DNA from: Patellaria atrata CBS 101060
Lineage: Eukaryota
DNA: 64,000 bases
Direction of reading: 5' to 3'
Assembly (NCBI GenBank): GCA_010093705.1
Contig: MU006095.1
Span: 930,001-994,000, forward strand
Below are positions 34,736-61,157 of this stretch, one piece after another (the stretch's first letter is position 1; each line of letters opens with the position of its first letter). Made by a program: the position numbers and the translations under genes. Under the pieces are notes generated by a model. That model worked only from the letters and a program-made list of their open reading frames with translations. It did not search any database and had not been told where the DNA came from.

Positions 34736-36006
34736 TTTGTGATACTTCAGTATTGTGGGAACTGCTGTTTGCTTCTAGAGAAGCGTGGGGGAGGTAGTTC
34801 TAGAGTTTAGGGTAGAGTTGGGGGATTAGGGATTAGGAGTGTGAAATGATATATTTCACTTATATCTTACTTTACAAAGACTTCTACTGTACTTATAACA
34901 TCATTGAGACGTAACTTAGGTAACCTGAGCTCTTGGTGCTTCACCGCAGCTTCAGCTCGTTCTCCCGTCCCGTCATGTCTATACTGGGGGCTAAAACAGC
35001 AAGAACGCAAAGATGGATCGGAAGCGGCGACGCTGCGCTTTGATCGGCTTGCTTGCACGGCTTGGTACTTGTTGGCATAATAGAGTATAGACGCGGTCGT
35101 CGAAAGAACGTTGAGGGTATCGGCTTGTCGGCAGTGGTGTTGGTTTGAAGGATTCCGATCCTTGTTTCAAGTCGCCAATCACACCCTATCGATTCTGAAA
35201 ACCGTCATGGCACTGGAGCACCAGGAGTGGTGGATGACCCAGCTCTTACTCAGGCATCGCGAAGGCAATGCAGGAACGACGTCAGGAGACTGGGGAGATG
35301 AGGCATAGCCTTCCTCTAACATTGTCTGCGGAATCCAGTTCAAGTAGAACTAGAAGTAATGGAGGGAACCATTAAAGTTAAGGTGTCTTTAGCCCTCTTC
35401 CCTAGAGCAAAGAGAATAATATTTATCTGCATAGTAGCTGTGATAGTAATATCTGGTGTCATTTACCTACCACATCTATACCTCCGAGAATAGCACCACC
35501 TCAGTCAGTACCCAGACTCTCATGTTATCAGCATCATCGCCGTCTACGTGGACTTTGAAGATTCCAGCGTCATCGATCTCTTTCCAATTTTGCGAATCCA
35601 TACGCTCGCGAGATCGTTGGCAGTTCGCAAAAGTTCTATACTGTGGATATGAAACCGCGAGATATAACCCTTAAGCATAATGCTATCATTTCTGTAATTA
35701 TGATTCCCGAGAAATGGACAGTAGGGAAGAAAAAGAGCTTTTAACTCAACCTCGAATTCTGTGCTTGAAAGAGAAAGAGGGAAACACCTTCGCTACCAGA
35801 TGAGCCCAAACTAACAAGAATCCCCAATTTCGGAGGAAACTGGTACCTAACTAGAGCCTATCAAGACCCCAGTGTTGCCTTACAAACACGAGAAAGATTC
35901 AAGAGAAAGATAAAATCAAGAAAGAAGAATCAAAACACCAGACCCCCTTTATCTAGAAGGCTTCCAGACTTATCAATCACCAAAAAGAAGGGAAAAAAAA
36001 GAGGGG

Positions 36007-36191
36007 AAAAAATGAATCAAAATCACAAAACAATTAGGCCCCCTTGAACCCCCGGACGGGTTTTTGCTGCCGCTGCTCCATTGACCTGAGGTTTACCGAT
36101 AAACCCGCCCGAAGGGAGTTTCGAACCGCCGACGTTTGCGTTTCGAGAGAGGGATCGTAGTCAGACTGCCTAACCGCTCTGCCACGAGGTT
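36007..36191 (-). ncRNA. Putative RNA polymerase III-transcribed, tRNA-like structured non-coding RNA (~165-185 nt)
   Basis: A box TGGCAGAGCGG (36184-36174), B box GGTTCGAAAC (36127-36118), upstream CAAC and TATA-like tract, T4/T6/T8 terminators, two long G-U-containing helices; no complete cloverleaf. Confidence 0.65.
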
Positions 36192-38037
36192 AGTTGAAGA
36201 ACGGCTTTTTACTTGGGAAATATAAAGAAGGGTAAGGCCCACTGAGAGAGGAAGACTCGTGTGCTGTTTGAACTTTGCGAATATCACGTGTGGGGATGGT
36301 TGTGAATGGCGATTGAACGGCTCTGTCACGTTAAACGGTGGTCATCGGGAGTGGGACTCCTGAGAGTTTTTTTTTCTCATTTAGTTTCTAGATAAAGCTG
36401 ATCCTCACTAACCACTCAACATCTCCGCAGTATGGGCAAGAGGAAGGAGATTCGAACGGTAGAGGAGCTGTATTGACATCATAATATATTAACTGACTAC
36501 CGGCACAACTCTACAGAAGACCCTATCCCGTCGGTGTACATGACATGGTGCGCTCTAAACGAGACAGTATCGCCACCTCATATCCTCTATCAGGATGAAG
36601 CTGATCTTGTAGGTTAGGTAATTACTCTGACCATTACACTGTTGCTCACAAGCGCTTAGTTGGTTCCCGAAGCAACCAAGTACTGGGAGCTCGTTGAGGG
36701 GGATTAGGTAAGAATATCTGCCGACTATGTAAAGGAAGCATTGAACTGTAATAGTATATTTGCTCTGAGGATATTTACTCTCTTCAATACGCATCTTCCC
36801 TCCCGTACAAGATGGAAAATCATTTACTTTGGAGAACCACACAAGACGATAGAAAACCAGGAACACGAATGGTATTGAGCACTAAACTTGGGACTAGATG
36901 TACTTCTCACTTACTATATATGAAACACCAGACAAACGTCAAAAGAGAAGAGGCATCTTCCTACACTGAACTTTCCGCATAGTTCTTACCGCGATCTGAG
37001 CGAGTACACGGATGATACTGGGGTCGTAGTGCCGTCAAGTCTCTATCTGTTACCCCAATACCTCGAGCTCGGTGGCATGAGGGAAATTTGTGGCGAGATG
37101 TTTTGTAAAAGAAACCCTCCTAGCTCTAGACTATATAGTTCGAAAGGTACCCTAGGTCATAATCCTTTTAAGTCCCAAACTCGTCCGATTCCTTTCCTCT
37201 GAAGATGAAATGCGGCAAATGCGGCAACTCCGCGCGTGATACTAAAGGGAAAATTGGAATTTACATGATAAATACTTATTTAGCGGTGTACCGGAAGTCT
37301 TGTATGGTACGTGGAAATGTCTGCTCGGCCGCTTGACTGTTGTCTGATTCATTTGGTACTGCACAATAGGTAGCGCTCCAAGGTAGTTTTGAAGTGTAAG
37401 GTACAAGTATTTTCGAACAAAAACTAGAGTCGTTACGGCGTGGGAAGCTTCCTGTAAAGGCAAATCGGTAGGAAGTCAACCTCTCCATTGTAGGTAAGAT
37501 GTGATCGCGGCTTGCCTTCGCGGGGGCGTGGCTTTCTATTCCTTACCCGTAACCGTGGCTGGGCTGATGTCAACAAGCATGAGAGGTTCTGTACAGCGGT
37601 ACAGAACCTCCACCAGAAAAGTCTTTAAACACGCGACTCGACTGCACACTGCCGGAAATCCGTAAATGTACAGCTAGACGGTTTGGTATAAGATCGCATA
37701 CTTGACTCCTAGACCCAGTTGAAACTGTTCGTTGGTTTTCTGATTTCTTGTCCTTTCTCGCTTCCAGTATTTCTCCGAATAACAGTCAAAACGAGAATAA
37801 CGAATAACGATATTTGATCTATCTACTGCACTTCAACTAAGCCATTGTGCTTGTGTATGAGTAGTGACGGTGTTGACATTCATCCTTACCTTTTCGTGTC
37901 TCCAATAAGCAAGATATTGTCGGAGTAACGCAATATCTGCAATCCAGATACTCGACGGTCTTTTACCCATAGCAGTATTCCCGAACGAACTGAAGGCCCA
38001 ACGCGACAATAACCCTCCTGGTATACGTTAGCCCAGC

Positions 38038-58320: not shown

Positions 58321-61061
58321 TCAAACCTTCGTATTATCCATGTGGGCGAGACGTATTCCCACAGCGTTTCTATGAGCGTCCAGTCCCTCGACTTCTGCTA
58401 GTCGCATGACTGCAGTTCCAACGTTGCGTAGTCCCTCGGCGGTGAGGTTTGAACTCGTGATGTGTTTTACATAGGATCCAAGATTAACGCCAGAGTATTG
58501 CTTCGCGTATCCATATGTAGCTGCACAAAATCCATTAACATTATTGGTCTTCTGTGAATGGGCCTTGACTTACGCAAGGAGTGATTGACACCCGCAGAGT
58601 AATCACCAACACTCTCGGGTGTCCATTGACCCACAAATACACTTCCAGCATTTTGAACTAGAGGTACGACATCTACAGCATTTTCCACCTGTAGAATCAG
58701 ATGCTCTGGAGCGTACATATTACTATAAACCATTGCTTCCTCGATAGTGTTGACTACAAGAGTGACTGAGTGTTCGATGGCCCCGCGAACAATGTCGACT
58801 CTGGGTAGTGCAGTGGCCTGAGCATGTAATTCATCGTCTATCGCCTGAAGTTGCTCTGGTTTTAGTGCGACTGCTATTAGAATGACTTGCGAGTCAACTC
58901 CATGCTCGGCCTGGCTAAGTAGATCGGAAGCTACAAAGGACGGATTTGATGTGCTATCCGCGATTACAAGTACCTCACTCGGCCCAGCAGGCATATCAAT
59001 GCCCACGCCAGCGCTGGTATCGTTGGACACAACCATCTTGGCTGCAGTCACAAATTGATTTCCAGGACCCAAAATCTTGTCGACTTTGCTAACCGTCTCG
59101 GTACCGTAAGCCAGGGCAGCGATTGCCTGGGCACCTCCGGCTAGCACAATACTTTCCGCGCCTACTTTGTGGGCGACATATACAATCTCAGGCGTCAAAG
59201 TCCCATCGGCACGAGGTGGAGAGGCGAGCACGATCTTCTTGCATCCTGCAACCATTGCAGGAACACCAAGCATGAGAGCTGTGGAAGGTAGGACTGCTGT
59301 TCCGCCAGGTACGTACAGACCTACTCGCTCAATTGGACGGGAGAATCGCGAACATACGACTCCTGGCATCGTTTCAACCTGAAGAGGCTTTTCCTCCTTT
59401 TGTGCGGCGTGGAAACGTCTAATATTCTCATAGGATACATCGATAGCCTCTACTGTGTCTTGAGATAGTTGCATCAAATTTTCAGGAAAAGGGGCGCGAA
59501 GAACTGGAGACGTGAGAGAGGTCGCTTTCTCGAACTTGTGCGTGTACTTTAGTAATGCTGCATCGCCCGTTTCGCGAACATCTTTGATAATGGGGTTAAC
59601 GATACTCATTATCTTTTCAGACGAGCGTTGTGATGGTCTCTGTAGAGCTTGTTGGATCGTTTCTTTACTGTCTTGACTAGTGATAAAGCGTGTCATCTGG
59701 ATTCTGCCATTCTTCAGTCCCGCAGAATCCACTGGATCCTTTGGTATAGATGCAGCCTCTTTGACTTTCTCTGTCTTCCCGTTTGGAGCTGATTCTGCGT
59801 TCGAGATACCTACCGTCTCTGCCCACGGTCCTTTAGCGTCACCTTTGCGTCGTTTGACTTTTATACTCTTTGCATCGAGGTTATTCTCGACGTCTCCCAA
59901 GGTTACACCTGCTGCTACGCATTTCGTCAGTGCAAAGTACATAAGGTCTGCTGCTTCGAAAGCTACGTCTTCCTTGGTTTGGGCTTCGCAAAGCTCATTG
60001 GCCTCTTCCATAATCTTAGCTTGGAGCAACTTCGAATCTTTGAATAGACGTGCAGTATAAGATCCTTCCGGGGCAGATACTTTCCTACTCTGTAGAGTCT
60101 GTTCGAGCCGCGAAAGTCCACGATACTGCCCGAAACATGTAGCCGTTGCTAGATGGCAAAACCCTGCTTGATTATTAGATCTTGTGAATCACGGTCTTGG
60201 ATTTCCCGTACCTCTGCCCTTTTGTTTCACGACAAAAGAAAGACAGTCCCGGTCGCAGTCTAAACCTATTTTGACGAGCTCTTGAGTGTCTCCACTGCTC
60301 TCTCCTTTATACCATAACCCCCTCTTTCTGCTTTGATAGACTCCTCGTCCAGTCTTTAAGCTCTCCGCAACACTCTCTTTACTACTATAAACTAAACCCA
60401 GAGCTATTCCTCTCTCATCCGTGACCAATGTTGTCAAAAGTCCGTCCGGTCTATCACTGGTAGCATTGACAAGTAATAGGCTTGCGACATCAATCAATTG
60501 AGGGCCGGATACAGCATCGACCGTAAGTAATGATGCCGGTAGGACCGGAATTGCGGATAAAGTGGCAACGCGAAAAGCTTTCTCAGACGTAGGTTCTGCG
60601 AACGAGACATAGACTTCGGGTCTGTCAGTCCCATACTCTTTCAGCCAAGCTTCGACGAGTTCGACATCTTGAATATTGTGCGCATATACGCCCACAGTTG
60701 TGTCCGAAATCGCATCGATGATCTCCTGTTTCGAGTTGACTGCAATAAGAAGAATGACCCTGTCTAGATCTACGATCTTAGATGTCTCTAACTGTCGAAG
60801 TTGCTTAAGGTTTACGATGACTTTGGCGGCTCCAGAATCTAAAAGAGAGAGGATGTCATCAATAGAGGTAAGCAATGTAACATCGAAGTGAGTCGCAAAT
60901 AGACCAATTGTTTGTTGTAGATATAGGAAAGCATCCTCCACCGAACCGGGTGTTATTGTGGTGAATGCATTGCCAATGTATGATAAGGCCTTGAGGCTAA
61001 GTCCCGCGCTGGGGGAGGTGTAACTTGTGATATCGATCGCAGGTAGTATACTTGGAGTCAT
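58321..61061 (-). CDS. HIS4: Trifunctional histidine biosynthesis protein (HisI/HisE/HisD)
   Basis: SDRPDGL..YQSRKRGLWYKGESSG..DCDRD, KIMEEANEL..EAADLMYF, GLYVPGGTA, IDMPAGPSEV, DLLSQAEHG, APEHL, NHSL/PTYG; two introns; TGA 58321-58323. Confidence 0.97.
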
Positions 61062-61106
61062 ATTTGCTAGAATACGGGATCTCCTGACATTAATTGATGA
61101 AGTTAA

Positions 61107-61157
61107 AGCAGGAATGGAGCCGGCTATTTATATAGCTTTGTTGCAATTATGACTCTT
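61107..61157 (-). promoter_or_regulatory. HIS4 promoter: TATA box and Gcn4/CpcA site
   Basis: TATATAAA on minus strand at about 61107-61114; ATGACTCTT at 61149-61157; second TGACTC at 61502. Confidence 0.6.

Follow-up and report, generated by a model that had tools for sequence, protein, structure and literature searches.

The question raised by this locus is what kind of element the tRNA-like sequence on its minus strand represents: a gene for a new structured RNA, a degenerate tRNA, or a member of a repeat family. An initial annotation of the window (the whole 64-kb stretch of DNA that was analysed) had proposed a Pol III gene for a highly structured non-tRNA RNA and had named a SINE head as an alternative. 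According to the analyses described below, the element, which extends on the minus strand from 36196 to about 36011, probably belongs to a family of tRNA-derived SINEs that is dispersed in this Pezizomycotina genome. The features on which this reading draws are the following.

36007–36196, minus strand: whole repeat unit of approximately 170–190 nt, with tRNA-like head, body hairpin and T-rich tail, corresponding to the predicted Pol III transcription unit
36218–36226, minus strand: TATA-like tract TTTATATTT (TATA at 36224–36221), approximately 25–30 nt upstream of the unit in unique flanking DNA
36193–36196, minus strand: CAAC motif with which the shared unit begins, 9–12 nt upstream of the A box
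36155–36191, minus strand: tRNA-like head with acceptor, D-arm and an anticodon-arm remnant that ends in the loop CTACGA, without a cloverleaf
36174–36184, minus strand: A box TGGCAGAGCGG, position confirmed by motif scan
36127–36118, minus strand: B box GGTTCGAAAC (reading GGTTCGAAACT over 36117–36127), 46 nt downstream of the A box
36044–36122, minus strand: body hairpin with a 15-bp stem (36115–36101/36063–36049) that includes three G-U pairs and closes a 37-nt apical region, recovered by RNAfold and as an inverted repeat
36058–36104, minus strand: apical part of the hairpin, the core of the family, in which contig depth peaks and conservation is highest
36025–36039, minus strand: 3' arm of a 15-bp 'panhandle' helix with five G-U pairs, partner at 36182–36168
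36030–36027, minus strand: T run, position confirmed
36007–36012, minus strand: T6 run, most likely the Pol III terminator
36000–35993, minus strand: T8 run following the T6 run

Read on the minus strand, the head has the sequence AACCTCG-TGGCAGAGCGG-TTAGGCAGTCTGACTACGA and resembles the 5' half of a tRNA. Motifs, helix arms and T runs had all been placed correctly by the initial annotation, and both strings of a TCTGA/TCAGG pair pointed out there were found in position as well. Ten of the 11 positions of the A box fit the consensus TRGCNNAGTGG. The joint pattern of the two boxes (TGGCNNAGYGG, a gap of 25–55 nt, and GGTTCGAA) matched once in the 64-kb window and in none of 100 shuffled sequences; the B-box motif alone is ordinary, with 12 matches in the window against 14 expected when one mismatch is allowed. 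By analogy to yeast Pol III genes, the CAAC motif at 36196–36193 likely marks the region where Pol III would start. The Pol III reading given at the outset, comprising A box, B box, a start at CAAC and an end at a T run, is thus supported by the motif positions as well as by the shuffle test. The TATA-like tract lies outside the repeated part and is therefore a feature of this particular insertion site, where it may be a chance match. In the excerpted description of SINEBase, A and B boxes count as an indication of a SINE and not as proof (PMC3531059); an internal promoter of this type is present in the element. A second B-box-like word, GTTCGAATCTCC, is located at 36446–36457 on the minus strand, about 330 nt upstream of the B box of the element. 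It stands at single-copy depth, is accompanied by no A box and otherwise does not resemble the element; it could be what is left of a very old tRNA or SINE, or it may have arisen by chance.

The resemblance to a tRNA does not extend to a tRNA gene. ARAGORN at default settings, with or without introns of up to 200 nt, predicted no tRNA gene in the window, and the head folded alone with RNAfold did not adopt a cloverleaf (z −1.06), which bears out the earlier statement that the element is not a tRNA. A closed cloverleaf, by which a tRNA gene would be recognised, could not be formed even with introns allowed. Only at a threshold of 80% did ARAGORN issue a weak 'tRNA-Glu' call at 36184–36105, and the tRNA model of Rfam had no match in the element at E values up to 10. 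The likeness to tRNA-Arg(ACG) was judged by eye from the initial 37 nt together with the B box. Another copy of the element (loose end at 36140), with two differences in 30 nt of the head, reads ACA in place of the 'anticodon' ACG, and judging from this sequence the element is therefore under no constraint as a tRNA. For comparison, the excerpts of SINEBase give a rule that 60 nt should be 60% identical with a tRNA (PMC3531059). One detail of the initial annotation was not upheld, namely that the T stem does not close: GGCGG and CTCCC pair at four of five positions by eye. An intron-containing tRNA, in which GTCTGA would pair with TCAGGT across an insert of approximately 70 nt, was considered and rejected, since the remainder of the 3' part has no T arm and the ARAGORN search with introns was empty. 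A solo LTR was likewise dismissed, because the unit lacks TG...CA ends.

Known structured RNAs do not account for the element either. A search of Rfam 15 (SRP, RNase P/MRP, U6, Y, vault, snoRNAs, the Afu_* families and others) yielded no match in the window at gathering scores. With E values up to 10 admitted, the only matches, both at chance level (E 3.7–3.8), were RUF6-5, whose 15.9 bits compare with a gathering score of 70, and Methylosinus-1, whose 8.1 bits compare with one of 145. The comparison with Rfam, which had been recommended initially, thus found no family that fits the region.

The copy number of the element was approached with the contigs of two public runs (X1 and X2, one sample, probably of DNA), which were aligned to 35400–36800 at 80% likeness. 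No run of RNA was among the sequencing runs found to contain the stretch. These contigs cover the window flanks without any difference, so that the sample represents the same strain; it may be the window's own source. The flanks have depths of 379 and 322 in X1 and of 445 and 458 in X2, which define the single-copy level. Within the element the summed contig depth, which is not to be equated with copy number and which in the bins beside the core 36058–36104 includes spill-over from it, took the following course.

35964–36010: 405 (X1), 481 (X2)
36011–36057: 2,812 (X1), 3,569 (X2)
36058–36104: 22,521 (X1), 26,056 (X2)
36105–36151: 5,198 (X1), 6,768 (X2)
36152–36198: 2,363 (X1), 3,805 (X2)
from 36199 up: 322 (X1), 458 (X2)

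At single places, depth in X1 amounted to 15,728 (36099), 7,344 (36112), 4,096 (36129) and approximately 2,500 (36146–36153), and at 36041 it was 3,289 in X1 and 3,001 in X2. In depth, the central 47-nt core exceeds the flanks about 45–64-fold, head and tail only about 7–12-fold, and most core copies may therefore come from other subfamilies or from a different repeat. In total, 50 contigs of X1 and 48 of X2 match the region, distributed over the identity classes of at least 99, 95–99, 90–95 and below 90% as 20, 11, 9 and 10 (X1) and 16, 13, 10 and 9 (X2). The contigs that carry the flanks of the locus break inside the element, at 36071 and 36116. Of the eight pieces listed per run, two represent the window locus and six are other copies, and 82 further pieces match in addition. 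The contigs of other copies among the pieces listed are 97–10,188 nt (X1) and 97–19,590 nt (X2) long and have depths of 289–324 (X1) and 408–489 (X2), as expected for single-copy DNA of the same genome. The copies listed show 5–16 differences and 0–12 gaps, and their contigs start or end within the element and lead to unlike flanks.

The rise in depth, together with these single-copy contigs that have different flanks, identifies the element as a dispersed repeat of the same genome. No further copy exists within the 64-kb window, where the element is single; the tacit assumption of the initial annotation that it is dealing with a single locus is nevertheless wrong for the genome. That annotation had also held that many dispersed copies would speak for a SINE, and this is the situation encountered, with about 50 matching contigs and a depth peak near 60 times the flanks. 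Of the possibilities it had raised, the tRNA-derived Pol III element and the SINE head therefore stand, while a unique gene for a novel structured RNA is not supported, given the multi-copy contig depth. With a unit of approximately 170–190 nt in different flanks, the element is a short (<1 kb), interspersed and non-tandem repeat as described for SINEs in the SINEBase excerpts, which also state a rule of 100 copies (PMC3531059).

The limits of the repeated unit are informative as well. At the 5' side the shared sequence ends at 36196; the other copies listed end between 36180 and 36196, and the letters beyond are unlike. The 3' limit falls between approximately 36030 and 36011, in the T-rich tail and just before the T6 run, and depth is back at flank level in the bin 35964–36010. 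The repeated unit thus coincides with the predicted Pol III transcript, as a retroposed Pol III RNA would leave it. For a SINE copy, transcription, folding in vivo and retroposition could be envisaged as follows. TFIIIC would bind to the A and B boxes, and Pol III would start near 36195–36191 and stop at the T6 run (36012–36007) or the T8 run, producing an RNA of approximately 185–200 nt. The degenerate tRNA head of this RNA would serve only as a promoter, and the body would fold into the 15-bp hairpin, whose apical 45–47 nt would represent the conserved central domain of the family. The reverse transcriptase of a partner LINE would then copy the RNA into new sites, probably by recognising its body or tail.

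Some observations speak against a SINE. In the flanks no convincing target-site duplication was detected, the best exact repeat being 6 nt long, not adjoining the unit and equalled in 834 of 2000 shuffles; only TTCTT adjoins both unit ends (36201–36197 and 35989–35985). The element contains neither a poly(A) nor a simple-repeat tail and ends in T runs as a plain Pol III gene does, and no LINE, reverse transcriptase or transposase was recognised among the 30 ORFs of the window that were scanned. On the plus strand, positions 35982–36012 form an A/G-rich tandem repeat with a 14-nt period (2.2 copies, 31 nt), which is the T-rich tail of the element and the only tandem array of the unit. The tail word AGNAGGGAAAAAAAGAG recurs at 35720–35737.

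A multi-copy state combined with no demonstrable target-site duplication or A-tail would also be compatible with a repeat other than a SINE, such as a MITE or part of some larger transposon that happens to have captured a tRNA-like piece and spreads as DNA. Moreover, a perfect 12-nt inverted repeat (CTTTATCTAGAA/TTCTAGATAAAG, at 35947–35958 and 36386–36397, with 427 nt between its arms) surrounds the region. However, from these arms up to the unit the DNA has single-copy depth, so that the arms do not mark where the repeated family ends; they may be a chance occurrence, and both contain the palindrome TCTAGA. The ends of the unit itself (36196 and approximately 36011–36030) bear no terminal inverted repeats of the kind by which a MITE is recognised, the sole inverted repeat within the unit being the hairpin, and on the 5' side it begins where Pol III would be expected to start, an agreement for which a DNA transposon has no need. 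We thus regard spreading as DNA as very unlikely. Even less can be said for a lone tRNA pseudogene in decay, or a resemblance due to chance, that has neither family nor function: it would agree with the missing cloverleaf and with the weak ARAGORN call, but it is contradicted by the multiple copies and by the tRNA-unrelated body that they have in common, and the combination of A and B boxes was not reproduced by shuffling. Such an origin appears extremely improbable.

If the element is a SINE copy, as we assume, the sequence in the window should be viewed as a diverged member of the family and not as its source gene, because it differs from the other copies at several places. An example is position 36112, where the window alone has a T: on the minus strand all other X1 contigs read C, as do those of X2 at all but single-copy depth. 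In another copy (loose end at 36111) the B box is the canonical GTTCGAATC, read as GTTCGAATCTCTC over 36117–36127. The changes between copies are not RIP-like, since transitions account for only 9 of 17 (X1) and 7 of 17 (X2) of the variable places listed. In the core (36058–36104) the sole variant listed above a share of 10% is at 36099; variants below this share are unlisted, which flatters the invariance of the core. Another member of the family, represented by a contig whose depth is about 3–4 times that of single-copy DNA, has 8 nt inserted behind 36041, within the 3' part, and this points to a subfamily whose tail stem is longer.

The predicted secondary structure supports the initial annotation in part. 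Both the terminal helix and the long hairpin described there were reproduced by RNAfold, the former (36182–36168/36039–36025, 15 bp) with five G-U pairs and no mismatch. On the minus strand the whole 185 nt fold with −63.7 kcal/mol (z −1.88), and 8 of 200 shuffles did as well, compared to a z score of +0.23 on the plus strand. For the hairpin at 36122–36044, the respective z scores are −2.76 (3 of 200 shuffles as good) and −1.72 (12 of 200). As regards the designation 'highly structured', the predicted fold thus surpasses chance only modestly. It had further been argued that the G-U pairs reflect selection on an RNA. This argument is weakened by the pair between U80 (36112) and G140, which is a private C-to-T change of the window copy because the other copies have C at this position. 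At 36115, two contigs carry a change of C77 to U that retains the pairing with G143. Two pair-keeping changes, both of the commonest mutation type, are too few to demonstrate covariation.

These observations bear on a further explanation, according to which the copies form a dispersed gene family, or one functional source gene together with retropseudogenes derived from it, that encodes a Pol III ncRNA of the cell; the apical core would be the functional part and the head would act as promoter. Such a function would follow the example of the vault and Y RNAs, or of BC1 and 4.5S RNA, which are related to SINEs, in animals; in mammals, these are Pol III transcripts of approximately 100–200 nt whose promoters are internal and which possess a terminal stem. 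The element resembles them in its internal promoter, in the length of its predicted transcript and in the predicted terminal stem. In addition, the shared unit extends from the predicted start site to the T-run terminator and has no A-tail, the 47-nt core is far more abundant and better conserved than the head, the minus-strand hairpin outperforms nearly all shuffles, and the two stem changes (C/U80-G140 at 36112 and C/U77-G143 at 36115) keep the pairing. On the other hand, the copies differ by up to more than 10% and have many indels between the boxes, no Rfam family matches (none of the vault, Y, BC1 and 4.5S RNAs reached an E value of 10 in the local Rfam scans of the element), and neither metagenome scans nor searches with a translated frame uncovered relatives outside this genome. 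Furthermore, the pair-keeping changes are C-to-T transitions and the only two that could be read, and the invariance of the core is partly a threshold effect, since variants with less than a 10% share are hidden in its great depth. The pattern of multiple diverged copies fits a mobile element better than an RNA of the vault, Y, BC1 or 4.5S type, and we consider a cellular ncRNA unlikely. A related proposal starts from the core itself (36104–36058), whose near invariance in some 50–60 copies, in contrast to the diverging heads and tails, might reflect a functional Pol III RNA or a domain that binds a host or LINE protein. We deem this improbable too; if true, the SINE-like copies would be a gene family or retropseudogenes, and a fungal counterpart of the SINE-related functional RNAs would have been found.

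A tRNA-derived SINE, our preferred interpretation, has several counterparts among fungi. AfuSINE2 of Aspergillus fumigatus is described in excerpts of the respective study as tRNA-related and 140–493 bp long, with degenerate A and B boxes and heads that do not form a cloverleaf, one of its families being derived from tRNA-Arg (PMC5063351). By this description it agrees with the element in its occurrence in the Pezizomycotina, the 5' tRNA-related head without cloverleaf, the degenerate boxes, the extended tRNA-unrelated region and the low to moderate number of copies. In contrast, target-site duplications (4–14 bp) and, for AfuSINE2-1a, an ACT-repeat tail shared with a LINE are features that the same excerpts give for AfuSINE2 (PMC5063351) and for which the copy studied here showed no convincing counterpart. 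Other fungal SINEs named in this source are MgSINE (472 bp, approximately 100 copies), Foxy (approximately 160 copies), nrs1 (11 copies) and Egr1 (approximately 50 copies), which, as far as described there, are likewise dispersed short Pol III-type repeats of filamentous ascomycetes with tens to low hundreds of copies (PMC5063351). The unit of the element (approximately 170–190 nt) is shorter than these, and the head of MgSINE, according to the same excerpts, folds as a tRNA cloverleaf whereas that of the element does not. In its layout, where a strongly conserved central domain lies between a tRNA-derived head and a tail that both vary, the element also parallels the CORE-, V-, Deu-, Ceph- and Meta-SINEs, which are described as superfamilies with a conserved central domain (PMC4824008, PMC4758252). 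The domains of these superfamilies, however, are described as conserved across animal orders or phyla, whereas the core of the element is conserved within one genome.

As a SINE copy the element is ordinary and of use mainly for the repeat annotation of this genome. For true fungi, the Introduction of the AfuSINE2 study mentions fewer than ten SINE families (PMC5063351). A compact family of approximately 180 nt whose central domain is sharply conserved would be a modest addition to these few, and it could help to find its partner LINE. More generally, where intergenic DNA of fungi contains sequences that imitate tRNA-like Pol III genes, their copy number calls for a check before any of them is declared a new RNA gene.

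Outside the genome, a 22-nt core word had no match in a metagenome scan. A second scan of this type, for the B box followed after a gap by a core word of 13 nt, returned eight loci (L001–L008). These were rejected as relatives and judged to be chance matches, as they have only 13–31 nt in common with the element and no tRNA-like head; L001–L003, when aligned, proved otherwise unlike the element, and ARAGORN predicted no tRNA in any of the eight. The translation of the only frame that is open across the element (51 aa) found no candidates at near lengths and none that scored among longer proteins. Its sole match in the representative library, P0121 (E 2.4e-9), was dismissed as a spurious match to internal repeats: this bacterial-looking protein of 2235 aa consists of many near-identical repeats of approximately 80 residues, and the similarity amounts to 40% identity over 31 residues in three stretches. 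In the literature, a 16-nt core word had no match among full-text papers, a search for SINEs of the Pezizomycotina returned nothing specific, and one paper mentions SINEs only as a class (PMC6416283).

The region around the element is gene-dense. Recognisable genes in the window encode the nucleoporin Nsp1, LAA2, PPP4R2, Clr2, GH53 and GH125 proteins, NPR2, an MFS transporter, a kinase and a ubiquitin-domain protein. The neighbouring GH125 protein shares 61–71% identity with its best relatives, of which those with names are mostly from Dothideomycetes and some from other Pezizomycotina; the host is accordingly a filamentous ascomycete to which nothing in the protein database searched is very closely related. 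Finally, two adjoining ORFs on the minus strand at 58467–61127 contain PRA-CH, PRA-PH and histidinol dehydrogenase domains, as found in the fungal His4-type trifunctional gene of histidine biosynthesis.
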